A stretch of 64,000 bases of DNA, from assembly GCA_963737905.1 (NCBI GenBank), contig CAVTUQ010000008.1:32001-96000 (forward strand), written 5' to 3'. The DNA is from an uncultured delta proteobacterium. Lineage in GTDB: Bacteria; Desulfobacterota; Binatia; UBA9968. This document shows, piece by piece, positions 5,090-33,021 of this stretch; position 1 is the first letter of the stretch, and every line of letters starts with the position of its first letter. Made by a program: the position numbers and the translations under genes. Below the pieces are notes generated by a model, which was not told the DNA's origin, searched no databases, and was given only the letters and a program-made list of their open reading frames with translations.

Positions 5090-5772
5090 CTACACTTCCG
5101 CAAAGCGACGCAGCAAATTGTGATAACAATTTGTCAGGCTCACCACTCCAGCATGGTTGGGCAAAGCCTGGTTGACCTGGTTGATCGCCATATCGAGATC
5201 GAAAAGAAGCGTTCTTTGACCATCGTCGCGCACCATACTCTGCACCCAGAAGAATGCTGCCAACCGCACGCCCCTTGTCACTGGATTAACGTGATGCAAG
5301 CTGGTTGCTGGGTAGACGACCATGTCACCAGCCGATAATTTCAGCGGATGTGCGCCGTAGACATCGTCGACGACAAGCTCACCGCCGTCATATTCGTCCG
5401 GGCTGCTGACAAAAAGGGTCGCGGATATATCGGTGCGTATCCGGTAGGGCGTGCCGGGAATTTGCATGACCGAGTTATCCAAATGCGACGCCAAACGATT
5501 CGCCGCCTTCGTAACGGTTGAAGAGCGGCGGAAAGACCCGGAGCGGCAACGCCGCAGTGATAAAAAGCGGGTTGCGCTCCAGGGCTGCGACGATCATGTC
5601 GCCCAATTCCCGCGCCTCGGGGCTGTTCTCAGCCAGCTGACGATTGTTTTTAACGACCTTCGATTGGTAACCTGCGGTGACGCGCCCGTCCACCCAGACT
5701 CGCCCGGTGCATCACTTCCCGACAATGGGCGACCTGTTCCTGGCTAAGAACGTGGGGAATATGGACAATCAT
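5090..5772 (-). CDS. piuC: PKHD-type Fe(II)/2-oxoglutarate hydroxylase (PiuC/YbiX), frameshifted
   Basis: [44 protein letters not shown] and [11 protein letters not shown] spread over three reading segments. Confidence 0.88.
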
Positions 5773-5787
5773 CAGGCTTCTCTTCCG

Positions 5788-8009
5788 TTAGAATCTAAAG
5801 AAGGTGCTCGCGATGAAGGTTCTTCCTGCGCCGGGCACGACATGGGACGGATGTATGCTTTCAATAAAGGCAGCGTTGGTAAGATTTTGAGCGTTCAGAC
5901 GGCACTGAATCCTCTCGGTGACGTTGTAAGCTACCGTCGCATCCCAGCGAACATAACCCGGGACCTCATTGACATTTGAATTGTTCGCGAACCGGCTGCC
6001 GACGTAAGTTGGCCCGCCGCCGATCTGCCACTTGTCCAAAAAGTCGTAGGTGGTCCAGAGAGTCGCGCTGTATTTCGGTATGTTCTGCGGCACCTTGCCC
6101 TGGAGGGAATAGGTCACGCCTTCGACAGTCTGAACGTCCTTGGACTTGAGAATCTTCGCGTCGAGAAAAGTGTAGCCGGCCCATACGTTCCACCCGGGCA
6201 GAATCCGTCCGGCTGCGCTGAACTCGACGCCACGGGAGCGCTGCTTGCCGTCGAGCACTTGCACGCCAAGGATAGGGTCGTTGGTGCGGGCATTGGTCTT
6301 CTCGATCGTGAACAACGCGCCTTGGAGGGTCAGCGCTCCGCCCATCAATAAAAATTTGCTGCCGATTTCGAAGATCTCGTTCTTTTCCGGCGGTGTCGCC
6401 TGGTTGTTGGCCGCCAACGTCAACCCTTCGGCCGAGGGGTTGAAGGCGGTTGCATAGGAGAAATAGTAGCTCTGCTGCGGCGTCGGATGAAAAACCAGGC
6501 CGCCGCGGTAACTGAACATCTTGTCCAGGCTGTCGAAGTCCACTTGCCCGGGCAATTTGTTTTCTTGATCGGCGCTAAAATAGTCCCAGCGCACGCCCCC
6601 GATGATGTCGAACTATTCATGCAATGCGATCTGGTCCGCGGCATAAATACCGAATCCGGCTGCGTCGGTAAAAGCGCTTCACCCCTAAGGTTTTGGGATT
6701 CGGGGTTTGATTGTTATTTGGGTTGTTAAGGGTCGTGGCGGGACCGGCGCTGGCATACCGGAGGTTATCGAGTCGTATCCCAGGACAGCTCTATGCCGCT
6801 AGCGAGCGTGTGCCCGAAGCCAAAGGTGTTGAACCGCGCGGTAAGGTCGGTCTGGCTGTCCGCAGATGCCTTCCGTGGTGTGGCGTTCCGGCCGGCTTCT
6901 GGTGATCCAGTGATTGTTGCGCCGGGTCCGCAAGTAATGGGCGCTGCGCAAGGGTAGGGCCGGTATACTCAGATCCAGGTCGCGGCGGACATTGCTATAG
7001 CGAAATGCGCTGCGTAAATTCAGAGCGTCGCTGAATTGATGGTTCAGGCTGATGGTGCCGATATTGGTGTAAGTTTTTTCATAGTCGTGCTTGGTCAAGC
7101 CATACCAGGTACCCCGGTCGACCCGCACGGGTTCGCCGTGGAAAAAAGGAAAACCGTAGTCCGGAATGTTGTCTTCGTGCTGAAACAAATAACTGAAGTT
7201 CATCTGGGTCGGCGTGCCGAGGCCCAGGTGAGAGTTGGAGCGAAGCCCTGGCGGGTCACTTTGACATGATCTCGGTCGACGATATCGGCGTGGTGGGCCA
7301 TGGCGTTCAGACGAAGAGCCATTGTGGGGGAGAGTGGCTGATTGATGTCCGCGGTGCCGCGGAAGTAAGGGCCGCTACCGGCGCTGGCGGTCCCATCGTA
7401 GAAGCCCTCGAGTTGGGGAGCCTTGCTGACCTGGTTGATGATCCCGCCGGTGGAGCCGCGACCGAAGTAAATGGAAGCGGGTCCCTTGAGCACTTCAACG
7501 CTTTGGATATTGAAGGTGTCGCGGAAATAGGTCCCTTGATCGCGGACGCCGTCCAGATACATGTCGTTGCGCGCGCTGAAGCCGCGCAGGGTGAAGTTGT
7601 CGCCCTGAGCGCCGCCAGCTTCACTCGCGGCGATACCGATGCCGGTGACATTGCGCATCGCATCGCGCAAGGTTGTCGCCGCCTGTTCGTTCATGATTTC
7701 TCTTGGCACAATGGTGATGGACTGGGGGATGTCTTGCACCGGCTCGGGTAGACGCTGCAGCCCCAGGTTCGGCACGACATAAGGACTCTTTTCCTCGGTG
7801 ACTGTTACTTGGGGCAGCGTGAATTCTTCTTGCTTTTGTTGTTCCGCTGGTTTGGGTTCCGCCGCCTTTGGTTCCGCCGCGAAACCGTTAGTTGCCAAAG
7901 CGAACGTAAAGGCCACGGCTCGGCCGACACCCTCACCGGCGGCGAGGGTGATCTTGTGGAGGAGTTTGTTCCTCCGTCTTTCATTGGCACGTTTTTCTTG
8001 TCGACTCAT
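5788..8009 (-). CDS. TonB-dependent siderophore receptor (Fiu/PiuA-like), multiple frameshifts
   Basis: Plug motifs DIPQSITIV, LRGF and VEVLKGPAS..FGRGSTGGIINQVSK; beta-barrel C-terminus ending FRF; GGAGG RBS. Confidence 0.9.
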
Positions 8010-20246: not shown

Positions 20247-21719
20247 ATGAAACGTGATTTTTGCAAGCGCTTTGGCGGGTTTTTGCTGCCAGGAATTCTC
20301 GCCTTGATTCTGATTCCCGCATTGGCTTACGCGCTGGACGGCAAGATTTTCAATGCCGAAGCCAAGAAATTGGAAGCCGTACCGGAAGCCAAGTTTTGGG
20401 TGGACACGATATGGACGGTCATCACGGCGATGCTGGTCTTTTTCATGCAGGCCGGCTTTGCCATGGTGGAAGGCGGATTCACGCGAGCCAAGAATACGGC
20501 GAATATCATGATGAAAAATTTCATGGACTTCGCCATGGGATCACTCGCCTTTTGGCTGATCGGCTTTGGCATCATGTTCGGCAACGGCAACGCCCTCTTC
20601 GGCACCACGGGATTTTTTGTGACGGCCGGTACCGGCGCGCTTTATGATGCCCTCAACTGGACAAGCGTACCGACTTTGACCGCGTGGTTCTTCCAACTCG
20701 TCTTTGCGGCGACGGCAGCGACTATTGTCTCCGGGGCGATGGCCGAACGAACAAAATTTGTCTCGTATCTGATCTATAGTTTTTTTATTTCTTTAATTTT
20801 CTATCCGATCGTCGGTCACTGGATTTGGGGTGGTGGCTGGCTCGCCAGCATGGGCATGCTCGACTTTGCCGGCTCAACTGTCGTTCACTCGGTGGGAGGA
20901 TGGTTTGCGCTGGTCGGGGCCATCATGTTGGGTCCCAGGTTGGGAAAATACGACAAGTCGGGAAAGCCTCTCGCTATACCTGGCCACAGTCTCTCACTGG
21001 CCACCTTGGGGACTTTCATCTTGTGGTTTGGTTGGTTTGGTTTCAATCCCGGTAGCACCATGGGGGCCGATGTGGAAGCGATCTCGCTCACGGCCACCAA
21101 CACCAATCTCGCGGCGGCGGCAGGCGGAATTTCAGCGATGCTTGTGTCATGGGTCCTGTTTAAAAAGCCTGATCTTTCTATGGCACTTAACGGTGCCCTC
21201 GCTGGTCTCGTGGCCATCACGTGCGCCTGTGCTTTTGTCGATCCGTGGGCATCGATTGTATTCTTTGGTGTCGTCCCCGGGGCCGTCGTCGTGCTGTCCG
21301 TTATAATGTTCGACAAGATCAAAGTTGACGATCCGGTCGGGGCCATTTCCGTACACGGCGTTTGCGGTTCATTGGGAACGCTTCTTCTAGGGTTCTTTCA
21401 TACCAAACTAGGGTTTTTGTACACCGGTGCAACAGACTTCCTGTTCACACAGGCAGTGGGAGTAGCGAGTGTCTTTGCGTTTTGTGTGGTTGGTGCGTTG
21501 CTTCTTTTCGGATCGATCAAAGCTATTGTCGGATTACGTGTTTCGGAAGAAGAAGAAATCGAAGGCCTTGATATCAATGAACACGGCAACATCGCATATC
21601 CGGACTTTGTATCGACGATGTCAGGACTGTCCAGGTCGTTCGCTTCCCCTGCAACCGGAATGGGGCAGCAGGCTGCTCATCCTTCGGCAGTGGTATTGAC
21701 TCAGGAAACGGGCAAATAA
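20247..21719 (+). CDS. amtB: Ammonium transporter
   Basis: FMQAGFAMVE, FQLVFA, GAMAER, DFAGSTVVH, WFGWFGFN, DDPVGAISVHG. Confidence 0.95.
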   Translation: MKRDFCKRFGGFLLPGILALILIPALAYALDGKIFNAEAKKLEAVPEAKFWVDTIWTVITAMLVFFMQAGFAMVEGGFTRAKNTANIMMKNFMDFAMGSLAFWLIGFGIMFGNGNALFGTTGFFVTAGTGALYDALNWTSVPTLTAWFFQLVFAATAATIVSGAMAERTKFVSYLIYSFFISLIFYPIVGHWIWGGGWLASMGMLDFAGSTVVHSVGGWFALVGAIMLGPRLGKYDKSGKPLAIPGHSLSLATLGTFILWFGWFGFNPGSTMGADVEAISLTATNTNLAAAAGGISAMLVSWVLFKKPDLSMALNGALAGLVAITCACAFVDPWASIVFFGVVPGAVVVLSVIMFDKIKVDDPVGAISVHGVCGSLGTLLLGFFHTKLGFLYTGATDFLFTQAVGVASVFAFCVVGALLLFGSIKAIVGLRVSEEEEIEGLDINEHGNIAYPDFVSTMSGLSRSFASPATGMGQQAAHPSAVVLTQETGK

Positions 21720-21739
21720 TAAAAGAAGAGAGCCGTTTC

Positions 21740-21775
21740 CCGTCGGCTGGCTCCATAATCGGAGCCAGCCGACGG
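21740..21775 (+). terminator. Strong hairpin after amtB1
   Basis: 15-bp perfect stem CCGTCGGCTGGCTCC/GGAGCCAGCCGACGG; no clear U-tract. Confidence 0.5.
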
Positions 21776-22195
21776 AAGGAAAGCCTACCCAGAGTTCTTT
21801 GCAATGATGATTCAGTGCCGGCCCAGTTTGGTTTCCCGTCTCAAAGGCGTCGTTTCTTAGGCACGATTGCTTCTCCTTCAAATCGCGGCGACTGCCGAAT
21901 CTCCAGTGGGCAATCATGCCGCGGTCGGCGATTCTAAAGTGCGGCAAAGTGCGCTTAACTCGTTGGCAGCTCATGCCAAGGGCGTGAAATCGCGCAATTT
22001 GATTATCCGTTCTAAATCGGCTAAACCGTCGATCGGACTCGCGACAGGTTTGCGCCGCGATTACCGGAGTTCGATGTGAAAATCCGGTTTATTGATTGAT
22101 CGAATTCGGCACCAAATCTTCTTGAGCGGTTACAGTGGCTCAGATCGTAAATCGATCGAAGACGCGATTGTCGCGAACGGTTAGAGCGAGCTTAC

Positions 22196-23758
22196 ATGAA
22201 GCCTTCGATTACGATCAAAAAGCGCCGGTTGGCGCCCGGACCATCAGGCGAGTATGATGCCTCGTTTAAAGAGTACGTCATCGCGATCGTTCTCCCTTTG
22301 CTCGTAACCGCTGGGTCATTGGTTCTCGAGTCGGTCGCCGGCCACAGCGCGGTTCCTTCCCTGTATCTCCTGTTGGTCGTTGTTCTCGGACTTAGATTGA
22401 GTCGAGGTCCGGTATTAGTCGCGGCCGTGAGCAGCGCGCTGGCGTGGTATACGGTGTTCATCCCACCGCGTTTTGCTTTTCATATCGGCACTCTCGAGGA
22501 GATGCTGATCTTTAGCACCTTCTTCGCGGTGGCGATGGCGATGGGACACTTGACGAGCCGGCTACGTTTGAGCGAGATGGGCGAACGAAGGCGACAGCAG
22601 CGTACGGCCGCGCTTTACCAGCTTGTGCATCAAGCGGGCCTGGCACCCGATCTTAACAGCGGACTCAGCGCGGCGATCAGGCTCATCGAGACGCTCTTCG
22701 ATGTGCGCGCCGCCCTTTTACTGCGTCGCTCAGATCATACACTGGCTGCGGAAACGCATACGGCCAGTTCTTTTGCACTTTGCGAAAGGGAATACAGCGC
22801 GGCAATATGGGCCTTCAGCCATGGGACGCCGGCAGGAAAGTTTACCGACACCTTTCGGGATTCGGAGGCCCTGCATCTACCGCTTCAAGCGGGCACCACT
22901 GCTGTGGGCATCCTGTCAATCCTTCCCTCTCCTGGAACAAATCTCGATCTTCCAGAAAGGGAGTTGCTGGAAACATTCGCCGTGCTCATCGGGACAATCC
23001 TGGAGAAAGACCATCTGCTCCAAGACCTCAAGCACGCGGAAATCCTTGAGGCCTCGGAGCGCCTGCACCGCGCGCTTCTGCAAAGCGTTTCGCACGAGCT
23101 CAAGACTCCTTTATCGGCGATCCAAACCGGCATTGACGCTCTCGGGAAGCAAGTGGGCAGCGGCGAAGAACGACGACAGATGACCCTTCGGGAGATCCAG
23201 CAGGCGCTGCGGCGCCTTCACCGCGTAATCAACAATTTGCTGAATATGACCCGCATCGAATCAGACGTGATTTATCCAAAGTTGGACTGGTGCGAAGTTG
23301 GCGAACTTATTCAAGCTGCCATCGATCTCGCTGCCGACGGCATCGGCGATGATCCGATCGTAGTGGAAATAGACGGAGATCTGCCGATGGTCCGGGTGGA
23401 TCAACCCCTCCTGGAACAATGTCTCTGCAATCTTTTGCTTAACGCCGCTTCCAATAGCCAACCGAGAACAAAGGTAATTATTCGCGCGGGAGTCGCCGAT
23501 AACCGGTTGATCCTCTCGGTGCTCGACGAGGGCAAAGGAATCCCTGAGTCGGATTTGCCGCGCATCTTTGAAACCTTTCACCGTGGAGTAGAGGCCCCTC
23601 CCGGTGGCACCGGGCTCGGCCTTGCAATCGTGGACGGCTTCGTGCGGGCGCACGGTGGAAGTGTGGCCGCAACTAATAGACAGCCGCGGGGGGCAGAATT
23701 CGTGATAACGATTCCGGTTGAGACTCTGCGATTGGATGCACTGGAGAGCTTGGCGTGA
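22196..23758 (+). CDS. KdpD-like sensor histidine kinase (DUF4118-GAF-HK; lacks N-terminal KdpD and Usp domains)
   Basis: 4-TM region with FIPPRF, H-box VSHELKTPL, NLLLNA, DEGKGI, GTGLGLAI. Confidence 0.88.
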   Translation: MKPSITIKKRRLAPGPSGEYDASFKEYVIAIVLPLLVTAGSLVLESVAGHSAVPSLYLLLVVVLGLRLSRGPVLVAAVSSALAWYTVFIPPRFAFHIGTLEEMLIFSTFFAVAMAMGHLTSRLRLSEMGERRRQQRTAALYQLVHQAGLAPDLNSGLSAAIRLIETLFDVRAALLLRRSDHTLAAETHTASSFALCEREYSAAIWAFSHGTPAGKFTDTFRDSEALHLPLQAGTTAVGILSILPSPGTNLDLPERELLETFAVLIGTILEKDHLLQDLKHAEILEASERLHRALLQSVSHELKTPLSAIQTGIDALGKQVGSGEERRQMTLREIQQALRRLHRVINNLLNMTRIESDVIYPKLDWCEVGELIQAAIDLAADGIGDDPIVVEIDGDLPMVRVDQPLLEQCLCNLLLNAASNSQPRTKVIIRAGVADNRLILSVLDEGKGIPESDLPRIFETFHRGVEAPPGGTGLGLAIVDGFVRAHGGSVAATNRQPRGAEFVITIPVETLRLDALESLA

Positions 23759-24459
23759 ACGAAAAGGCAACCGCACTGATCATAGACGACGAGCCGCAGA
23801 TTCGCAGGCTGCTCCGCATTGTTCTGGAGCAAGAGCATTACCGTGCGCTGGAATCCGATAGCGGCCGCCACGGCCTTTCTGAGGTAGCGCTTCGTAGACC
23901 GGATGTCGTGCTATTGGATTTGGGGTTGCCGGACATGGACGGGTTGGAGGTGCTTAAACGGGTGCGCCAGTGGAGCCAGGTACCGGTGCTGATTCTCTCC
24001 GTAAAAGACAGCCCGGAGGATAAAGTTGCCGCTTTAGACGCCGGGGCGGACGACTATGTGACCAAGCCCTTCGAAGCCACCGAACTTCTAGCGCGGCTGC
24101 GGGCGATCCAACGGCGCGCTCCTGCCGGTACCGAGAACGCCCACTTCGAAGCTGGCCATCTCGCCATCGACTTCAGCAGTCACACTGTGACGGTCGAGGG
24201 CCGGGAGGTCAAACTGACTGCGACCGAGTATGCGTTGCTAAAGCTGCTGGCGCTGCACGCCGGAAAAGTTGTTACCCACAAGCAGCTGCTACGTGAGGTG
24301 TGGGGACCAAACGCGGAAGAGCAGTCGCAATATTTACGAGTTTATATGATGCATCTACGCAAGAAGATCGAAATTTCCGCAGGACCCGAAAGACTCTTAA
24401 GAACGGAAAGCGGGATCGGTTATCGTCTTGTAGCTCCACCGCACACGCCTCAGGGCTGA
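23755..24459 (+). CDS. kdpE: KdpE-like OmpR-family response regulator
   Basis: DDEPQI, LDLGLPD, GADDYVTKPF, THKQLLREVWG, YLRVYM, GIGYR; overlaps the kinase stop. Confidence 0.88.
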   Translation: MNEKATALIIDDEPQIRRLLRIVLEQEHYRALESDSGRHGLSEVALRRPDVVLLDLGLPDMDGLEVLKRVRQWSQVPVLILSVKDSPEDKVAALDAGADDYVTKPFEATELLARLRAIQRRAPAGTENAHFEAGHLAIDFSSHTVTVEGREVKLTATEYALLKLLALHAGKVVTHKQLLREVWGPNAEEQSQYLRVYMMHLRKKIEISAGPERLLRTESGIGYRLVAPPHTPQG

Positions 24460-24589
24460 AGAGCTAAGCCGCTATTGTAGTGCCCCTAAGGCTTCTTTGC
24501 GTATAAATGCTTCGAGAGGGGCGGGCCTTCAGTCACATAGATAACTCTCCTGATTGGTTATTTCACGAACCTTTTCGGTGAGGTTTTGC

Positions 24590-24626
24590 TGCTTAGGATT
24601 TGCGCAGCTTGCTTAAAGCGTGGGCA
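24590..24626. promoter_or_regulatory. Tandem NtrC-type enhancer sites
   Basis: TGCTTAGGATTTGCGCA and TGCTTAAAGCGTGGGCA with starts 20 bp apart, followed by an AT-rich tract. Confidence 0.65.
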
Positions 24627-24759
24627 ATTCATTTTGAACTGTCTGATGTTGTCCAAGGGGTATTAGCGCAAGTGATGTCATAAAAAATTAATAAAAATTT
24701 ACTTTACTAAAATTAAATAAAAATAAAAATTACTTGTCACCGCTGATATTAACCTACTA

Positions 24760-24775
24760 TGGTATATCTGTTGCT
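24760..24775 (+). promoter_or_regulatory. Sigma-54 promoter (distal) upstream of PII copy 2
   Basis: TGGTATATCTGTTGCT, GG-N10-GC. Confidence 0.7.
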
Positions 24776-24933
24776 TGCTCAGCGACGAAATTTTCATCCA
24801 CCAATCGGTCAACGACCGGCTCAATCATTAAGCAACTCAGCATGAGTGCGCGGATCACGTTTTTTTGCGTGATCTGAAAAAAATCCTCAATCATTTCCAG
24901 CTTTATTATCCCGCGTCCCGCGACGAGCGATGG

Positions 24934-24949
24934 TGGCATCGCGCTTGCT
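24934..24949 (+). promoter_or_regulatory. Sigma-54 promoter (proximal) upstream of PII copy 2
   Basis: TGGCATCGCGCTTGCT, GG-N10-GC. Confidence 0.75.
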
Positions 24950-24983
24950 CCTAGCAGCGCAAGGGTTGGCCGGTTCGCCGTAG

Positions 24984-25352
<369 letters not shown>

Positions 25353-25381
25353 GAGAACAGACTAGGAAAAGGGGAGGAAAA

Positions 25382-27145
25382 ATGGAACGAGGAAAATATA
25401 GGACTATCTTTGCGTCCTTGGTCGGAGGGCTTTGGATGTTATTGTTTATGGGGTTTTCATTTGCTGCCGAGGAAGCTCCGCCACCGGCGGGTGGAGAACC
25501 GCCAAAAGCCGAGGCTCCAGCGGCTGCACCCGCGGTGCCCGCGCCAAAGCTGCCGCCGTATTTTACGGCCACGAGCCCGGACCCCAAGACGACGTTGTGG
25601 CCGGATCCGACAGGTGCAAACTCCGGTGTCTGGGCGGCGCCGGCCGGAGACGGCAAAGGAGATCTCCCGGAGAAGCTGTCCGTTCAAGACGTCTACGACC
25701 GGATGGCGCACAACCTGTTCGCGATCAATTTTGTCTGGGCGCTTGTCACCGGCTTTCTCGTCATGTTTATGCAGGCGGGCTTTATGATGGTCGAGACCGG
25801 TCTATGTCGCGCGAAGAACAGCTCCCACACCGCAGCGATGAATCTGATGATTTACCCACTAGGTGGACTCGGGTTTTGGATCTATGGCTTTGCGATCGGC
25901 TGGGGCAACTGGTGGAACGGACCGGTGCCCCCAGGTTGGTTTGCCTCTCTCGGTCCCGGTCTGTCGATGTTGAATGGCGGTTGGGGGTTGGGTGCGGCGG
26001 TGGACGCTGCCGGGAAAGCTACGGGGGCATTCACGTATGGCATCATTGGAACGACGGGTTGGTTTCTCACGGGCGTCGCCAATGACGTTGCCGTCATGGT
26101 GCTTTTCTTTTTTATGATGGTCTTCATGGATACGACGGCGACGATTCCCACTGGAGCGATGGCCGAGCGCTGGTCATGGAAGAATTTCCTTCTCTACGGC
26201 TTTTGGGTAGCACTTCCCTATTGTATCTATGCGAATTGGCTCTGGGGTGGCGGTTGGCTAGCGCAAGGTGGCATCAATTGGGGTCTTGGGCATGGAGCGG
26301 TGGACTTTGCCGGTTCGGGTGTTGTTCACGCGATGGGGGGGATCATTGGGCTGGCTGGCGCGATGGTCATCGGTCCCCGTATTGGCAAATACGATTCGCA
26401 AGGCCGGCCGAAGGCCATGCCTGGCCATAGCGTACCGATGGTTGTAGCAGGTACCTTTATCCTAGCTTTTGGCTGGTTTGGGTTTAACCCGGGTTCTACC
26501 CTTGCCGGTACAGATCTACGCATCAGCTTCATCGTGGTGAACACGATGCTCGCCAGCTTTACCGGATCTCTCTTCGCTATGTTTACGCTCATGGCCAAGG
26601 GGCTCAAGCCAGATACGACAATGATGTGCAACGGTATGCTCGCGGGGCTCGTGGCAATCACCGCGCCTTGTGCATTCGTCAATCCCGTGGGGGCGGTGAT
26701 CATCGGTGCAGTTGCCGGTATCCTTGTCGTGCTCAGTGTTTTCTTCTTCGAAGCGCGTGGCATTGACGATCCGGTCGGCGCCATCTCCGTGCACGGTACA
26801 AACGGTCTCTGGGGCGTGTTGTCCGTAGGTATTTTTGCGACCGGCGAGTACGGCGCAGGCTGGAATAGCGTGGTGCGCGACGAGATGGTGAAGGTCTATG
26901 GTTCAGACGGCGTCCGCGGTCTCCTATACGGTGATTTCTCCCAGTTCATAATGCAGATCATAGACTGCGCGGTCGTTGCGGTGTTTGGCTTTGTCATGGC
27001 CTACATCTGGTTCAAAATCAGCGACCTGATTACGCCGATCCGCGTCAGCGTAGAAACCGAGACGGAGGGGCTCGACGGCCCAGAGATGGGCGTCCTCGGT
27101 TACCCGGACTTCCAGCTCCATCAGGGATCGAGGATTGTGGAATAG
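25382..27145 (+). CDS. amtB: Ammonium transporter with long N-terminal extension
   Basis: FMQAGF, GAMAER, DFAGSGVVH, FGWFGFN, DDPVGAISVHG. Confidence 0.93.
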   Translation: MERGKYRTIFASLVGGLWMLLFMGFSFAAEEAPPPAGGEPPKAEAPAAAPAVPAPKLPPYFTATSPDPKTTLWPDPTGANSGVWAAPAGDGKGDLPEKLSVQDVYDRMAHNLFAINFVWALVTGFLVMFMQAGFMMVETGLCRAKNSSHTAAMNLMIYPLGGLGFWIYGFAIGWGNWWNGPVPPGWFASLGPGLSMLNGGWGLGAAVDAAGKATGAFTYGIIGTTGWFLTGVANDVAVMVLFFFMMVFMDTTATIPTGAMAERWSWKNFLLYGFWVALPYCIYANWLWGGGWLAQGGINWGLGHGAVDFAGSGVVHAMGGIIGLAGAMVIGPRIGKYDSQGRPKAMPGHSVPMVVAGTFILAFGWFGFNPGSTLAGTDLRISFIVVNTMLASFTGSLFAMFTLMAKGLKPDTTMMCNGMLAGLVAITAPCAFVNPVGAVIIGAVAGILVVLSVFFFEARGIDDPVGAISVHGTNGLWGVLSVGIFATGEYGAGWNSVVRDEMVKVYGSDGVRGLLYGDFSQFIMQIIDCAVVAVFGFVMAYIWFKISDLITPIRVSVETETEGLDGPEMGVLGYPDFQLHQGSRIVE

Positions 27146-27250
27146 CAACGCCGAGAGCCGCGTTTCGCCCAAAATACGACTCTCACTGGTCCGTTGCATG
27201 ACAGCGAATTTTCCGATTCGGCTGAAACAATCTACTCGTGTTCATTTCGT

Positions 27251-27287
27251 TGGCTAGCATTTGGGCATGACGCTTAGTGTTTGGGCA
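27251..27287. promoter_or_regulatory. Tandem degenerate NtrC-type enhancer sites
   Basis: TGGCTAGCATTTGGGCA and CGCTTAGTGTTTGGGCA with starts 20 bp apart. Confidence 0.55.
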
Positions 27288-27380
27288 GTTTTCATGTGAA
27301 TCATCATCCCAGCACGTTCTCTACGACAGGAAAGTGGTGATTTTCAATAAGAAAAAGATTTGCTGATCCATGAAAGGCTG

Positions 27381-27396
27381 TGGCATGCGAGTTGCT
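27381..27396 (+). promoter_or_regulatory. Sigma-54 promoter of glnB-glnA operon
   Basis: TGGCATGCGAGTTGCT, GG-N10-GC. Confidence 0.82.
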
Positions 27397-27468
27397 GATT
27401 CAGGACTTATTTTCTCGAGAAAAGTTTCAGTCGAAAGTCTTCGCTCCCGGCTTCCATTTTTAGATTAA

Positions 27469-27825
<357 letters not shown>

Positions 27826-27941
27826 AACGACATCATGAGATCGATGGATATCTGGCAAGAAACAATGACCTAGAATCCTTGGCAGGCAAGGGACGAACAA
27901 CATTCCCAACGAGCAATAGTCAATTAGGAGGCAAATGTAAC

Positions 27942-29357
27942 ATGGCAGCCAAAGACGTACTGGAGCTAGTCAAGAAGAACAAAATAGAATTTGTGGATTT
28001 CAAATTTGTGGACGTGCCCGGGTTATGGCAGCACTTTTCGATTCCGGCGGCAGAGTTGACGGCGGACTTATTTGAAGACGGGATTGGCTTTGACGGCTCC
28101 AGCATACGGGGATTTCAGTCGATCAACGAGTCCGACATGCTCCTTATCCCCGACCCCGACAGCGCCATGATGGACCCGTTCACCGAGCATGTGACGTTGA
28201 GCTTAACCTGCAACGTCATCGACGCCGTGACCCGAGAGTCCTACAGTAGAGATCCCCGTTACGTAGCCCAAAAAGCGGAGAAATACCTAAAATCGACAGG
28301 AATAGCCGACATAAGTTACTGGGGGCCCGAGATCGAGTTCTTCATCTTTGACAACATTAGATTCAACCAAAGCACCAACGAAGGGTATTACTTTATCGAC
28401 TCCGAAGAAGCGTTTTGGAACTCGGGGAGCAATGACAAACAGAACCTGGGCTACAAGATCCGCTATAAAGAAGGCTATTTCCCCGTGCCACCCATGGACC
28501 AATACCAGGATCTGCGCTCCGAGATGGTCAAGAACCTAGAGAAATGCGGCATCAAGGTCGAGGTGCACCATCACGAAGTGGCCACCGGGGGACAGACCGA
28601 AATCGACATGCGCTATGGGACGCTCACGCGGATGGCCGACCAGGTTTTGCTGTACAAGTACGTGGTCAAGAACACCGCTCGAAAGCGCGGCAAAGTGGTC
28701 ACCGTGATGCCCAAGCCCCTATTCCAAGACAACGGTTCCGGCATGCACGTCCACCAGAGTCTGTGGAAGGCCGGCAAGAACATCTTCTACGACAAGAAGG
28801 GTTATGGATTAATCAGCGAGACCGCCAGATACTATATTGGCGGCTTAATTAAACATGCCCACGCGCTGTGCGGCTTTATCGCGCCGACAACCAACTCCTA
28901 CCGAAGGCTGGTTCCCGGCTACGAAGCGCCGATCAACCTTGTCTATTCAGCCCGTAACCGAAGTGCCTGTGTTCGAATCCCCATGTACTCGACCAGCGAG
29001 AAGGCCAAGCGGCTCGAATTCCGTACTCCTGATCCGAGCTGCAATCCTTATTTTGCCTTTCCGGCGATGCTGATGGCGGGCCTCGATGGGATACGAAACA
29101 AGATCGAGCCGCCCAAGCCCATCGACAAAGACTTATATGATCTGGAGCCGGAAGAGGCTGCCAAGATCAAATCGATGCCCGGGTCCTTGGATCAAGCCCT
29201 GGATGCGCTTGAGAAAGACCATGAATTCCTACTTCGAGGGGATGTGTTTACCAAGGATGTGATTGAGACCTGGCTTGACTACAAGCGTAAGAAGGAGGTC
29301 GATGCCATCCGGCTCAGACCCCATCCCCATGAATTCGCCCTGTACTTCGATATCTAA
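27942..29357 (+). CDS. glnA: Glutamine synthetase type I
   Basis: FDGSSI, HHEVATGGQ, DNGSGMHVH, RLVPGYEAP, NRSACVRIP, DLYDL adenylylation region; AGGAGG RBS. Confidence 0.97.
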   Translation: MAAKDVLELVKKNKIEFVDFKFVDVPGLWQHFSIPAAELTADLFEDGIGFDGSSIRGFQSINESDMLLIPDPDSAMMDPFTEHVTLSLTCNVIDAVTRESYSRDPRYVAQKAEKYLKSTGIADISYWGPEIEFFIFDNIRFNQSTNEGYYFIDSEEAFWNSGSNDKQNLGYKIRYKEGYFPVPPMDQYQDLRSEMVKNLEKCGIKVEVHHHEVATGGQTEIDMRYGTLTRMADQVLLYKYVVKNTARKRGKVVTVMPKPLFQDNGSGMHVHQSLWKAGKNIFYDKKGYGLISETARYYIGGLIKHAHALCGFIAPTTNSYRRLVPGYEAPINLVYSARNRSACVRIPMYSTSEKAKRLEFRTPDPSCNPYFAFPAMLMAGLDGIRNKIEPPKPIDKDLYDLEPEEAAKIKSMPGSLDQALDALEKDHEFLLRGDVFTKDVIETWLDYKRKKEVDAIRLRPHPHEFALYFDI

Positions 29358-29384
29358 ACCACACGCTAACGGACAGGGGGCCCG

Positions 29385-30131
29385 ATGGACGAGGTCCTAG
29401 TTTTTCAGCACGACCCGTTTGAGGGTCTGGGTTTTTTTGCGGAGGTATTGGAAAAGCAGGGAGCGAGTTTTCGAACGATCCGGCTTTTTCATGGCGAGGT
29501 GCCTGCCGAGGATTGGGAGGAAACCAGCGCTCTCATCATTCTTGGTGGGCCGATGAGCGTGTCTGACGAGGAACAATATCCGTTCCTTCGTTGGGAAAAG
29601 ACGATTATCCGCGCGGCCATAGACGACGCAGTGCCCCTCTTGGGAGTCTGTTTGGGTGCGCAGCTTATCGCGGCCGCTCTTGGTGCGGAGGTTCATCACG
29701 GACCGGTGAAAGAAATCGGTTGGTATCCGATTTCAATCACACCGCATGGGCAGGTGGATTCATCGCTTGGGTACCTTCCCGAAAACGCGGTGGTGTTTCA
29801 ATGGCACGGCGACGGTTTTGGTATGCCTGCCGGCGCGCAACGCTTAGCGTCGTCCACCTATTATGAAAATCAGGCGTTTCGCCTGGGCAAAAACATCTAT
29901 GGTCTCCAGTTCCATCTTGAGATGACGTCGGAAATGATTGAGCGATGGATCGATGAACGTTCCAAAGACCTCGCCCAGGTTCCTTACATTCATCCGGACA
30001 AAATAGTCAGTGATACCCAAAACTACCTGCCCACCTTGAAATATTACGCGGAAAAGTTTCTGTCAGAATTCATCCGTCGCGCGACCAAACCGAAAAACAT
30101 AAGAACAAAAAAAGGCCACGCAAAAGTATGA
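29385..30131 (+). CDS. Class I glutamine amidotransferase domain protein
   Basis: ILGGPMSV, GVCLGAQL (nucleophile Cys), QWHGD, GLQFHLE (His/Glu). Confidence 0.9.
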   Translation: MDEVLVFQHDPFEGLGFFAEVLEKQGASFRTIRLFHGEVPAEDWEETSALIILGGPMSVSDEEQYPFLRWEKTIIRAAIDDAVPLLGVCLGAQLIAAALGAEVHHGPVKEIGWYPISITPHGQVDSSLGYLPENAVVFQWHGDGFGMPAGAQRLASSTYYENQAFRLGKNIYGLQFHLEMTSEMIERWIDERSKDLAQVPYIHPDKIVSDTQNYLPTLKYYAEKFLSEFIRRATKPKNIRTKKGHAKV

Positions 30132-30715
30132 GGAGGGTCCTGGTCATAGACGACCATGTTCCCTCCCGCGACAATCTAAAACGGGCTCTGGCTGCCAGTG
30201 GTTGTCAGATTGTCGGCGAGGGAATGAGCGGCAAGGGAGCGGCCCAGTTAGCTTCGGCCACGGTCCCTGATGTAATTTTGATGGCGGTGGGCCTGTCTGA
30301 TCTGGATGGGATACGCGCTGCGCGGAAGATCATGCAGGCAAAGCCCGTTCCGGTTATTCTTGTCAGCAGCCACTACGACCCCGAAACTGTCGAGCGCGCT
30401 AAACGTGCCGGCGTGATGGGTTATCTTCTCAAACCTCTGCGAGACGGCGAGCTGCTACCCACAATCGAAATTGCAGTGTCTCATTTCCAAGAGTTTGTTG
30501 CCCTCCAAAAAGAAAACGAGAATCTCAAGAAGACCCTCGAAGCACGGAAGATCATTGAGCGCGCGAAAGGGATTTTGATGAAGAGCCAAGGACTTTCGGA
30601 GGGGGAGGCATTTTCCTTAATTCAGAAAAAGAGCATGGACTTACGTAAACCGATGGGTGAAATCGCGGAAGCGGTGATCTTGAGCGCAGAGCTCTCTAAA
30701 GGGAAGAGCGATTAA
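30128..30715 (+). CDS. ANTAR-domain antiterminator with atypical receiver domain (NasT/AmiR-like)
   Basis: ANTAR motif RKIIERAKGILM...EAF..IQKKSMD; receiver PDVILMAVG has Ala at the phospho-Asp position. Confidence 0.92.
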   Translation: MRRVLVIDDHVPSRDNLKRALAASGCQIVGEGMSGKGAAQLASATVPDVILMAVGLSDLDGIRAARKIMQAKPVPVILVSSHYDPETVERAKRAGVMGYLLKPLRDGELLPTIEIAVSHFQEFVALQKENENLKKTLEARKIIERAKGILMKSQGLSEGEAFSLIQKKSMDLRKPMGEIAEAVILSAELSKGKSD

Positions 30716-30741
30716 AGCTCCGTGGTGCGCCAACGATTCGG

Positions 30742-30758
30742 TGCTGAATTCCCGGGCA
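30742..30758. promoter_or_regulatory. NtrC-type enhancer site
   Basis: TGCTGAATTCCCGGGCA (TGC-N11-GCA). Confidence 0.5.
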
Positions 30759-30840
30759 GGGAGTGATTCTTTGATACGCAATCCACTTGTGAGGCGATGA
30801 AATAACACCGTAGGCAAGAACTTTTTTCCCAAGATAGCGC

Positions 30841-30856
30841 TGGCATAACCGTTGCT
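30841..30856 (+). promoter_or_regulatory. Sigma-54 promoter
   Basis: TGGCATAACCGTTGCT, GG-N10-GC. Confidence 0.82.
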
Positions 30857-30871
30857 ACTCAGCGAGTCAAG

Positions 30872-30936
30872 GGCAACGTTGCCATCGGTCGAGCAAAGGC
30901 GCTCATCGTGCAAGCGGTGGAGCGCTTTTGTTTTTT
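30872..30936 (+). promoter_or_regulatory. ANTAR-target dual hairpin overlapping an intrinsic terminator
   Basis: P1 GGC-AACGTT-GCC and P2 GAGC-AAAGGC-GCTC (A1/G4 hexaloops); terminator CAAAGGCGCTC...GAGCGCTTTTG-TTTTTT. Confidence 0.85.
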
Positions 30937-30955
30937 GGTTGATAAGGAGGTCTTT

Positions 30956-31156
30956 ATGGCTCGGCGTCACGAGAAAACAATCACCGGAAAAATATTCGAG
31001 AATATCCTCTTTTTGGAAGAGGTCTTTGGTGACAAGGCCGATACGGATATCCCGGATGTACCGGTTCTCGAATTAGCAAAATGCTTTGAATTGTCTCATC
31101 GAAGAACGTTGCATCCCACCAGAGGACGCCAGAAGCCCTGGCCGCTTTGGAAATAG
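30956..31156 (+). CDS. Hypothetical protein under sigma-54/ANTAR control (may extend to 31323 via frameshift)
   Basis: TAAGGAGG RBS, ATG 30956; another frame continues ALAALEIERANYRITEVNDWVVVHP... to TAA 31323. Confidence 0.7.
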   Translation: MARRHEKTITGKIFENILFLEEVFGDKADTDIPDVPVLELAKCFELSHRRTLHPTRGRQKPWPLWK

Positions 31157-31640
31157 AGCGGGCGAATTACCGAATCACCGAGGTGAATGATTGGGTTGTC
31201 GTCCACCCCTCGGGCAAAGCCCAAAACAGCGAACCCCTTTCACGGCCTAAGATTGACCAAGATCGCGGAGTGTACAAACTACAAGTTCGAGCATTGTCCA
31301 GCCGAGCCGAGCTTAAAGTCTAAACGACGTCAGCTCAGGCAATCAATTCACTTTGAAGGGCAAACCAAAAAACGAGCGCCATAAAACCATTCACCCAATA
31401 TCTGTCCACGCTTTGGGTCAAGAATTGCATTGGTTCAGCGAGACTGTAGTTGATGACCAGTCGGGCATCATGAAAGCGCCGGAAAACTAAGTGGAACTTA
31501 GGATTTCTAGGCCCCATCGGCTGGCTTTGAGAAAAGCGTTGCCTAAATCTTAGTCCTGGCTGTGGTTAATGTTTGAGCGTTTGCTTAATTTCGTAACACT
31601 TAATTTTCGATTCCAGTCGATACTTGGTTGGCTCATTGGG

Positions 31641-31656
31641 CGGTATCTAAGTTGCT
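31641..31656 (+). promoter_or_regulatory. Sigma-54 promoter of porin gene
   Basis: CGGTATCTAAGTTGCT, GG-N10-GC; degenerate enhancer-like sites at 31540-31598. Confidence 0.65.
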
Positions 31657-31723
31657 TATCTAGAAAAGACTTTTTGACTGTGTCATATCACGCGTAGTCT
31701 CAATTTTTAGGAGGTGCACGACG

Positions 31724-32996
31724 ATGAAAAAAGGTGTGGTGGGTTTGTGGATTTTCAGCTTGTTTTTCTTGCTCAGCACGGTATACGCGGCTGAGCCGGA
31801 ACAGAAACCAGCTGCGCCGGAACAGAAACCGGCCGAGCCGGCGGAAAAACCTTTAGAACCAGGGTGGCTAAGCTTAGATAGCAGTGTGGGCGTTGCGGAC
31901 AATTGGATCGCACTTAATAAGTCAGCTGTGGAAAACGCTTTAGGGTTCAGCATTGGCGGGTACTTGGACACGAGTTACACTTGGAGTTCACGTCATCCGA
32001 AAGATCCCTCCAGAATCAGCGGTCGATATTTCTATGGAGACCAGAACAAAGTCGACTTTAACGATTTCCATATAGTTTTCGACAAGCCGGAGAAAGATTG
32101 GGGTGTTGGCTTCCACATATCCGGTGATTTCGGCCGCACCGGAGAGTTGTTGAGGGAAGCGACGTTGTGGAGCCTAAACTTGAATAAGGAACCTTCAGCC
32201 GAGTTGCGCGAGTCCTACATCACCACGACGATTCCTGTCGGTGAAGGAATTCAATTCAAGGGAGGTTTGTTTGTAACGACTCTGGGAACGGAAATCCTTC
32301 CAAACCCAGGCTCTTACAATGACCAAATAACGCGTTCGTTCGCGTTCAACTATGCCATTCCACTTCGTCACCTAGGCGGTCTTTTTACCTATCCATTTCT
32401 CAAAACGCTGACTGGCACCATGGGTGTTGTAACCGGTTGGGATAATCCTCGCGATAACAACGGTTCGCCATCGGGATTGTTTGGGCTAACCTTCACCCCC
32501 AGTGACACGTTCTCGTTGGCAAGCAATATCATCGTTGGTCCAGAACAGACGCATAACACCAACGATCCCCGTTTTACCTGGAGTAATGTCGCCACGATCA
32601 AGCCAATGGACCCTCTTACTCTCTTGCTAGAGTTTACGCTTGGTTTTGAGCAAGACGCATCGACGCCGACGGGTATTAAGGATGCCCAGTGGTACGCCTT
32701 CGCTGGTACAGGAGTCTTGGAGCTGGACGGACCGCTTCAGCACGTCGCTCCGAACCGAGCTATTTTTAGATGAAGGAGCGTCGAGGACGTCAAGGCTTTG
32801 CGGCCACCAAACCTATATTTCAACGTTGCGTTAGGTGAAGTGACGTTGGCGGGAACCTACAAGTTCACCAAAATGTTCCAGGGCCGAGCGGAGTTTAGGC
32901 AAGACTGGGCCAATCGAGCCGTTTATAAGAGAGGGTCGCAGCAACGCCAATGCCAATCAGACGACCTTAGGCCTGCAGTTGCTCTATCAATACTAG
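31724..32996 (+). CDS. Outer-membrane beta-barrel porin (BBP2/DUF1597-like), frameshifted near C-terminus
   Basis: Signal peptide, GGYLDTSY, GLFVTTLGTE, VTGWD, RAEFRQD, C-terminal QLLYQY beta-signal. Confidence 0.8.
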
Positions 32997-33021
32997 CCCA
33001 ATCGATAACTGGTTTCGCAGG

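Follow-up and report, generated by a model that had tools for sequence, protein, structure and literature searches.

A predicted GnfR-type antiterminator lacking the phospho-acceptor aspartate, encoded behind glnA and a glutamine amidotransferase-like gene in an uncultured Binatia bacterium

How is a transcription antiterminator controlled when its receiver domain has lost the aspartate that a kinase would phosphorylate? The question is raised by two overlapping genes at positions 29385-30715 of a 64,000-nucleotide stretch of DNA from an uncultured Binatia soil bacterium (GenBank assembly GCA_963737905.1, contig CAVTUQ010000008.1, positions 32,001 to 96,000), hereafter the window. The first gene encodes a stand-alone class-I glutamine amidotransferase (GATase)-like protein and the second a receiver-ANTAR (REC-ANTAR) antiterminator, and both lie behind glnB and glnA. 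An earlier interpretation of the letters without database searches (the sequence-only reading) had suggested that the GATase senses glutamine and thereby replaces phosphorylation. The explanation that we favour, with modest confidence, is that the antiterminator would act independently of phosphorylation on GnfR-type RNA sites, with its supply set by sigma-54 and with a remodelled, conserved pocket, and that the GATase would be a co-transcribed hydrolase.

The receiver of the window protein reads PDVILMAVG at the end of beta-3, and the phospho-acceptor aspartate of this position is replaced by Ala53 (codon GCG, 30284-30286). Full-length alignment with the two closest solved ANTAR regulators, Rv1626 (1s8n, E 1e-38) and 6wsh, placed Ala53 on their phospho-Asp (in 'MDV' and 'MDI', respectively), and D8, D9, S80, K102, and P103 were all retained. 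With the phospho-Asp lost, the receiver has no canonical site at which a kinase could switch it. A PF03861 profile search of the genome of the window revealed one ANTAR domain only, that of the window protein itself. The sequence-only reading described the locus correctly in every element: glnB, glnA, GATase, and ANTAR all lie on the plus strand, the GATase stop TGA (30129-30131) overlaps the ANTAR ATG (30128-30130) in ATGA at 30128-30131, alanine stands for the phospho-Asp beside the kept DD and KP, and no kinase gene adjoins the pair; a histidine kinase gene that lies 6.4 kb upstream overlaps its own OmpR-type regulator. An antiterminator that is not phosphorylatable at the canonical site, in a nitrogen operon and with an ANTAR-type leader just downstream, is also what the present analysis found.

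We compared 41 related genomes, 12 of which carried a full-length ANTAR orthologue (one of these, G006, is flagged as unpublished). Alanine occupied the acceptor site in 11 of the 12, and the remaining protein, 45% identical, has arginine. When 185,579 species genomes were scanned with 11 aligned proteins (that of the window and 10 orthologues), 80 loci were returned, and across these and the window (n=81) the acceptor site was Asp in 41, Ala in 37, and Ser in 3. The 40 Asp-less homologues formed one clade at midpoint rooting, comprising Binatia and Methylomirabilota/Rokubacteria. The Ala codon was moreover covered by contigs of four public DNA runs from three studies, one of which may be the source sample, with no difference there among the rows listed; one contig (30042-30298) spans the codon with 0 differences. 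Both checks that the sequence-only reading had called for, in orthologues and in reads, agree with it, and these sequences indicate that Ala53 is a conserved state, not an assembly error.

The loss of the aspartate is accompanied by changes around it. Five residues distinguish the Asp-less from the Asp-containing members: G55 (38/40 versus 2/41), L56 (40/40 versus 5/41), S81 (37/40 versus 0/41), H82 (34/40 versus 0/41), and H10 (30/40 versus 0/41). K102 and P103 are present in 81/81, and D8 with D9, as well as T/S80, are found in 39/40 of the Asp-less members. We take the positions DD+1, D, D+2, D+3, T+1, and T+2 to line the active site in CheY-like receivers. The patterns of substitution indicate that the pocket around the lost aspartate is rebuilt in concert and was then conserved, not decaying.

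ANTAR output domains are reported to be strongly enriched for aspartate-less receivers (ALRs; Maule et al. 2015, PMC4395418), and the window protein, without a phospho-Asp and on an ANTAR output, resembles them; Asp-less receivers on ANTAR domains are, as a class, already known. In ALRs at large, the second acidic position is reported to be retained in no more than 29% (PMC4395418), whereas this clade keeps both acidic residues, the T/S, and the Lys, and adds a conserved His, Ser, and Gly around the site. Among Asp-less ANTAR proteins, AmiR and NasT are each kept in check by a partner protein (PMC3795266). Both AmiR-AmiC of Pseudomonas aeruginosa and NasT-NasS of Paracoccus denitrificans share with the window a receiver-like ANTAR protein that is not run by a kinase, and NasT likewise controls nitrate/nitrite assimilation genes by antitermination (PMC3795266). 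AmiC and NasS are adjacent ligand sensors of the periplasmic-binding-protein fold, whereas the neighbours in the window are glnA, the GATase, and a porin. The window receiver is also near-canonical, unlike the AmiR-type pseudo-receiver, whose AmiR_N profile (PF21332) scored 18.5 bits against a cut-off of 27. A 2025 perspective on pseudo-receivers (PMC12632262) does not mention ANTAR, AmiR, or NasT. Two things are new on the sequences compared: within the GnfR-type family, a monophyletic branch that is Asp-less and whose rebuilt pocket is conserved, and the recurrent GATase neighbour. The occurrence of this branch in Binatia and Methylomirabilota/Rokubacteria, abundant and mostly uncultured bacteria of soil and groundwater, would illustrate how the output of two-component systems is rewired.

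The RNA on which the window protein would act was sought in the leader behind the ANTAR gene. Ramesh and colleagues are said to have described, in 2012, the ANTAR RNA as two stem-loops whose hexaloops have A in the first and G in the fourth position; the second stem-loop (P2) would share bases with the terminator. Exactly this arrangement was found at 30872-30936, where two A1/G4 hexaloops are followed by a terminator that the second overlaps, and the leader RNA has a minimum free energy of -33.1 kcal/mol (z -4.5). The leader had been pointed out in the sequence-only reading, and its hairpins, terminator, and covariation mark it as real. A search of Rfam at E up to 5 over 24000-33000 returned no match. 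A generic whole-genome scan for two A..G.. hexaloops with a complementary terminator arm produced 52 matches compared with 64 in the reversed sequence and was discarded as non-specific; only the sequence-anchored leader pattern is specific.

That pattern, GCAANGGCG[CT][CT] plus a terminator, was matched 65 times over 849 kb, in 44 of the 80 loci and always on the ANTAR strand; the opposite strand and the reversed controls gave 0 matches each. A1 and G4 of the P1 and P2 hexaloops were invariant across 31 aligned leaders. In the same set, covariation was observed for 5/5 pairs of P1, 2/4 of P2, and 4/11 of the terminator, and the variable base of the P2 loop covaried with the 3' arm of the terminator. 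None of 500 shuffles reached the observed score, and sliding the alignment lowered the paired cells from 95% to 29-51%. A sigma-54-like motif also precedes the homologous leaders in other loci.

The site in the window has the same core, GCAANGGCGC, as the RNA site of GnfR, the REC-ANTAR antiterminator of the nitrogen-fixation regulon of Geobacter sulfurreducens (GSU2822; Ueki & Lovley 2010, PMC2995071), which is given as CAGGCAANGGCGCC and lies in leaders behind RpoN promoters. The window site, cGAGCAAAGGCGCTC, lies 35 nucleotides after TGGCAT-N5-TTGCT, and the two bases 5' of its core are AG versus the published GG. The two systems share the REC-ANTAR architecture, a core that overlaps the terminator, the succession of RpoN-type promoters and terminators, targets in nitrogen acquisition, and a regulator gene that itself stands behind a sigma-54 motif. 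They differ in that GnfR is phosphorylated by GnfK and needs phosphorylation for RNA binding (PMC2995071), whereas the window protein has an alanine and a remodelled pocket, and in that the targets of the window protein are nitrite, nitrate, and cyanate uptake genes and a porin, not nif genes. The window system thus has the GnfR-type RNA site and no acceptor Asp for phosphotransfer from GnfK. By its RNA site, architecture, and context, with no Geobacter protein sequence entering the comparison, the window protein is best classed as a GnfR-type antiterminator. Studies of GnfR-type antitermination have been confined to Geobacter, in which a kinase is required, and this clade would run the same RNA switch without a phospho-acceptor.

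The genes behind the leaders point in the same functional direction. The genome of the window has three further convincing leaders, which precede genes for a Rieske_2 (NirD-like) protein with a sirohaem-synthase-like protein, an NMT1_2 (NrtA-type) ATP-binding cassette transporter with cyanase, and an unassigned secreted protein of 275 amino acids with Usp and MFS genes. A relaxed pattern gave 6 matches in this genome versus 2 in the control, and the three inspected are those of the stricter pattern; the leader site C35 derives from separate scans, not from the relaxed pattern. In other loci, the first gene after the leader is nirA-like in 10 cases, encodes a 265-amino-acid secreted protein in 6, and is amt in 5, glnB in 4, a porin in 3, and nrtA in 3. 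From the leader core, the conservation of the leader, and the genes downstream, we therefore propose that the protein is an antiterminator of the GnfR type and serves nitrogen-acquisition genes of a second tier. The conserved leader, with its sigma-54 promoter, two hexaloops, and terminator, could serve as a sequence marker of second-tier nirA, nrt, cynS, amt, and porin genes. A dispersed intergenic repeat of the same genome (...CTCGCGCAAAGGCGCAAAGG.CGCCAAG...CTTGGCGTCTTGGCG...) occurs on many contigs and is not a leader; it holds GCAAAGGCGC by chance only and looks like a repetitive extragenic palindromic (REP)/miniature inverted-repeat transposable element (MITE)-type element. Solute-binding proteins of the NrtA/SsuA type (PF13379, NMT1_2) are very greatly expanded in this 6.7-Mb genome, with 153 matches above the cut-off.

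The arrangement of sigma-54-type motifs suggests how the supply of the regulator is set. The motif before glnB2 is the likely promoter of glnB2-glnA-GATase-ANTAR. In the loci of delta-type metagenome-assembled genomes (MAGs) that have the order ANTAR-then-GATase (n=18), a motif precedes the ANTAR gene in 18/18 and a leader in 0/18; after the GATase gene, the motif is found in 15/18 and the leader in 16/18. Because the motif is always present and the leader always absent before the ANTAR gene, the regulator appears to be made from an unattenuated sigma-54 promoter. We infer from these placements a two-tier, feed-forward arrangement, in which the targets would require both sigma-54 and antitermination and the regulator would not need antitermination.

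Taken as a mechanism, the two genes at 29385-30715 would form the distal end of a sigma-54-driven glnB-glnA-GATase-ANTAR operon. The ANTAR protein would bind leaders that carry two A1/G4 hexaloop hairpins, and because P2 (with GCAAAGGCGC) holds the 5' arm of the terminator, binding would let RNA polymerase read on. One target leader would lie behind a second sigma-54 promoter (30841-30936), 157 nucleotides after the ANTAR stop and before a small open reading frame (ORF) and the porin. No kinase would switch the Asp-less receiver, and nitrogen limitation would most likely reach the regulator through its own sigma-54-dependent synthesis: sigma-54 would turn on the regulator and the target promoters together, and the targets would not be read through until the regulator has accumulated. 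Since the pocket is remodelled and conserved, a second, non-phosphoryl input is likely. The GATase, with its intact fold, would be co-transcribed with the regulator and would not be an obligatory sensor.

Several points weigh against this explanation. Because the scan that chose the 31 leaders accepted only stems of 3 or more pairs, the proportion of paired cells is overstated for the inner pairs. The window contains 6 sigma-54 motifs compared with 3.5 expected, which is not above chance, so that placement has to carry the sigma-54 argument. Control by synthesis alone is our inference, and the conserved, remodelled pocket argues against a merely constitutive receiver; because AmiR and NasT are held by partners, a protein partner is reasonable to expect. 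The remaining points concern the GATase. Metabolically, a glutaminase would be of little use early in nitrogen starvation. The GATase gene always stands on the same side of the leader as the regulator: it is the first gene after 0 of the 65 leaders, and after 0 of 3 in a separate set, and a GATase or ANTAR gene precedes the leader in 32/65. One lineage has the two genes, ANTAR and GATase, as a sigma-54 operon of their own, and two GATases that adjoin Asp-less ANTAR genes have Gly for the catalytic Cys.

The identity of the GATase bears on these points. The window protein is a class-I GATase with the triad C89 (GVCLG) and H177/E179 (QFHLE) that the sequence-only reading had noted, and the Cys-His-Glu triad was intact in 37/39 relatives. 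It scored 228.4 bits over residues 1-233 of 248 against the NCBIfam model PRK07053, below the equivalog cut-off of 250. The nearest solved chains, 1o1y (TM1158), 9xfs, 3l7n, and 3m3p, are uncharacterised stand-alone GATases of the COG0518/PRK07053 type, with which it shares the fold, the length, the triad, and the lack of a synthase partner domain; gamma-glutamyl hydrolases (7d54) and plant GGP1 are more distantly alike. The window subgroup differs from the other COG0518/PRK07053-type proteins in its occurrence in glnA/glnB/amt/porin clusters, often beside the ANTAR regulator. The GATase probably works in nitrogen metabolism in its own right, as a glutaminase or a gamma-glutamyl/amide hydrolase.

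The foremost rival, which we consider unlikely, gives the GATase-fold protein the role of a trigger enzyme that senses glutamine: bound to the receiver of a GnfR-type antiterminator, it would retain or free the regulator depending on glutamine, and it would be the third ANTAR partner after AmiC and NasS. The pairing itself recurs. A GATase homologue adjoins the ANTAR gene in 28 of the 80 loci, with gaps of -1 to 251 nucleotides, and lies in the same cluster in 2 more; the order is GATase-then-ANTAR in Binatia and ANTAR-then-GATase in delta-type MAGs, two phylum-level lineages, and since both orders occur, the adjacency has survived rearrangement. In a metagenome scan seeded with the GATase, all 3 close orthologues (at least 71% identity) were followed by an Asp-less ANTAR gene. 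Its never standing first behind a leader and the dedicated operon, which is leaderless before the ANTAR gene in all 18 loci, also speak for a sensor. So do the GATases of loci L033 (the genome G005) and L034, directly upstream of Asp-less ANTAR genes, in which Gly (GGC) replaces the catalytic Cys (TGC) and the His, the Glu, and the LG-G-LGAQ motif are kept (407-448 and 583-624, respectively) in a full-length reading frame; the two DNAs are 95% identical and come from different MAGs. GnfK has no sensor domain (PMC2995071), so an input is missing that a sensor GATase could fill. A search of the literature revealed no published description of a GATase-ANTAR pair, as the sequence-only reading had supposed, and among the papers listed only the NasS-NasT paper was relevant.

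The distribution of the two genes points the other way. The GATase adjoins 19/41 Asp-containing and 9/39 Asp-less loci, so the pairing is not tied to the Asp-less state. No GATase homologue occurs within the locus DNA (up to 8 kb per side) of 18 Asp-less loci whose flanks reach 1 kb or more both upstream and downstream, and none was found nearby in the Methylomirabilota/Rokubacteria part of the clade. The 41 related genomes contain a GATase orthologue in 8, an ANTAR orthologue in 12, and both in 5; 7 of the 12 ANTAR-bearing genomes lack a GATase orthologue and have only a paralogue about 40% identical, which in the genome examined, that of the window, is 38% identical and lies in a housekeeping context near 2-oxoacid:ferredoxin oxidoreductase, Fpg, KsgA, and TsaD. 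Because many Asp-less genomes have no GATase, the Asp-less receiver appears to work without it. Conversely, the GATase orthologue is present in three genomes (G004, G008, and G015; 98, 98, and 96% complete), where it stands in glnB-amt-GATase-porin or glnA-GATase-porin clusters; PF03861 matches nothing in these genomes, and their porin gene is not preceded by a leader. This suggests that the GATase has a function independent of the antiterminator. More distant members, in about 12 of 80 GATase-seeded metagenome loci, likewise lie by amt, glnB, or glnA without an ANTAR gene.

The triad, intact in nearly all relatives, also weighs against the sensor, and no GATase-ANTAR or GATase-REC fusion was found among 13 longer ANTAR relatives, all GAF-ANTAR, and 4 longer GATase relatives, which were fused to asparaginase, hemerythrin, LmbE, or PF06778, an absence that is weak evidence. 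When Binatia with (11) and without (12) the GATase were compared, the only ANTAR residue that followed its presence was I50/V, a conservative exchange. Complex prediction for ANTAR and GATase scored 0.00 with controls not run and weighs neither way. The co-occurrence that the sequence-only reading had wanted examined is thus real, in both gene orders, and is not tied to the missing aspartate. The proposal that the GATase replaces phosphorylation is not supported by the same data, given the greater frequency of the pair with Asp-containing receivers, the many Asp-less receivers without it, and the genomes that keep the GATase alone. We regard the sensor as a minority reading, which the comparative data support weakly, and the broader form, in which a GATase-fold glutamine sensor, catalytically dead in some lineages, gates phosphorylatable and Asp-less GnfR-type antiterminators alike through the receiver, as equally doubtful. 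If it were true, the GATase would supply the input that the sensor-less GnfK lacks and would be a third class of ANTAR partner. The recurrent neighbour may be a hint of glutamine sensing, yet on the comparative data it cannot explain the control of Asp-less receivers in general.

A second rival, to which we give no better chance than to the GATase sensor, places the sensor in the pseudo-receiver pocket itself: D8, D9, H10, S81, H82, and K102 would bind a metal or an anionic metabolite, or take a non-canonical modification, and thereby set dimerisation and RNA binding with no partner. The concerted, clade-specific, and conserved changes at positions lining the active site would be expected of such a pocket, as would the retention of the acidic pair, the T/S, and the Lys, in which it differs from AmiR, and the Ser at the acceptor position in three loci. 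No ligand can be named, however, and the conservation fits a protein interface or fold stability equally well; in addition, H10 is replaced by Ser in 10 and H82 by Arg in 5 of the 40 Asp-less members.

Least probable is that the pseudo-receiver is bound by PII (GlnB), or by some other protein whose gene lies elsewhere, which would relay the 2-oxoglutarate/ATP status. PII proteins control many targets by binding, and glnB belongs to the operon here; in 23/80 loci it is no more than 5 kb away from the ANTAR gene, and in one (L042) it ends 42 nucleotides before the ANTAR start. This linkage is little informative, however, because PII genes occur in nearly all nitrogen clusters, we know of no PII-ANTAR complex, and no NasS-like cytoplasmic partner was seen. 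No AmiC/NasS-like partner cluster appeared among the neighbours of the 80 loci, and their NrtA-like neighbours carry twin-arginine translocation (Tat) signals. The only strong candidate for a NasS-like partner among the 153 PF13379 proteins of the window's genome was rejected as well, as it carries an RRQFL Tat-like motif.

Table 1. Positions of the genes, motifs, and RNA elements considered in the window, with examples of the dispersed repeat elsewhere in the same genome
Feature	Position	Strand	Evidence or remark
Ammonium transporter gene	20247-21719	+	ORF and Pfam
DUF4118-GAF-HisKA-HATPase histidine kinase	22196-23758	+	6.4 kb upstream of the pair
OmpR-type response regulator	23755-24459	+	Overlaps the DUF4118-GAF histidine kinase gene
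Sigma-54-type -24/-12 motif TGGCATCGCGCTTGCT	24934-24949	+	Exact match to TGGCAYN5TTGCW; 65 nucleotides before glnB1
glnB1	25014-25352	+	Near-identical to glnB2 in translation
Ammonium transporter	25382-27145	+	Pfam Ammonium_transp, 341 bits
Sigma-54-type motif TGGCATGCGAGTTGCT	27381-27396	+	Exact match; 91 nucleotides before glnB2
glnB2 (PII)	27487-27825	+	PF00543, 118 bits
glnA (type I glutamine synthetase)	27942-29357	+	PF00120 (Gln-synt_C), 454 bits; PF03951, 110 bits
Stand-alone class-I GATase-like protein, 248 amino acids	29385-30131	+	PF00117, 68.1 bits
REC-ANTAR antiterminator, 195 amino acids	30128-30715	+	PF00072, 78.1 bits; PF03861, 76.0 bits; both above cut-offs
Sigma-54-type motif TGGCATAACCGTTGCT	30841-30856	+	Exact match; 126 nucleotides after the ANTAR stop, 16 nucleotides before P1
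Leader hairpin P1, GGC-AACGTT-GCC	30872-30883	+	Hexaloop with A1 and G4
Leader hairpin P2, GAGC-AAAGGC-GCTC	30891-30904	+	Contains the GnfR-site core GCAAAGGCGC
Intrinsic terminator and T-run	30894-30936	+	5' arm is the P2 loop and 3' stem
66-amino-acid ORF with strong ribosome-binding site	30956-31156	+	First gene after the leader; without a Pfam family
BBP2/OmpL-type porin	31724-32773	+	PF07642, 132 bits; next gene after the 66-amino-acid ORF
Sigma-54-type motif TGGCATTGGCGTTGCT	32940-32955	-	Fourth exact match; just after the porin; without an obvious gene downstream
Repeat CTCGCGCAAAGGCGCAAAGG/CTTGGCGTCTTGGCG, examples in the genome of the window	C2:102713, C2:113374, C12:84338, C29:46899, C42:14049, C46:9366		

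The genes around the pair are listed in Table 1. The gap between glnA and the GATase gene is 27 nucleotides, and a consensus scan revealed no terminator-like site in the glnB2-glnA or glnA-GATase gaps; the hairpins that it returned lie inside the glnB2 and GATase coding regions (27630 and 29412). The latter, a terminator-like hairpin with a T7 run at 29412-29437 (GACCC-GTTTGA-GGGTC TGGGTTTTTTT), lies 27 nucleotides inside the GATase coding region; it could reduce transcription arriving from glnA, or it could simply result from the conserved GLGFF codons. In three soil-metagenome runs, contigs match the window up to the glnA stop (29358-29359) and then continue into unrelated sequence; close relatives therefore exist whose glnA is not followed by this GATase.

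Downstream of the leader, homologues of the 66-amino-acid ORF were found after the leader in 4 loci, and in the sister species (L022) the ORF is followed by nirA and nrt genes. The window instead has 570 nucleotides (31157-31723) with no ORF of at least 60 amino acids in the orientation of the porin, whose gene comes next; a rearrangement is suggested by this difference. Porins recur in these nitrogen clusters, and 17/80 loci have one no more than 5 kb from the ANTAR gene.

In the Fervidifonticultor and Armatimonadota loci (L089, L093, and L095), a stretch at about 5400-7350, just upstream of an Asp-containing REC-ANTAR gene, is 37-38% identical to the GAF part of the GAF-ANTAR protein P0010. 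P0010 itself is encoded neither in L021 nor in the genome of the window. The layout of these loci may resemble PdtaS/PdtaR and would then differ from that of the nitrogen clusters.

Upstream of the operon, the region 20247-27145 holds three ammonium-transporter genes and two near-identical glnB copies within 8 kb, and one of the transporters has 587 amino acids with a long Ala/Pro-rich N-terminal extension. The histidine kinase and OmpR-type regulator genes (22196-24459), which lie co-oriented between amt and glnB1-amt, may form a nitrogen- or ammonium-related two-component system.

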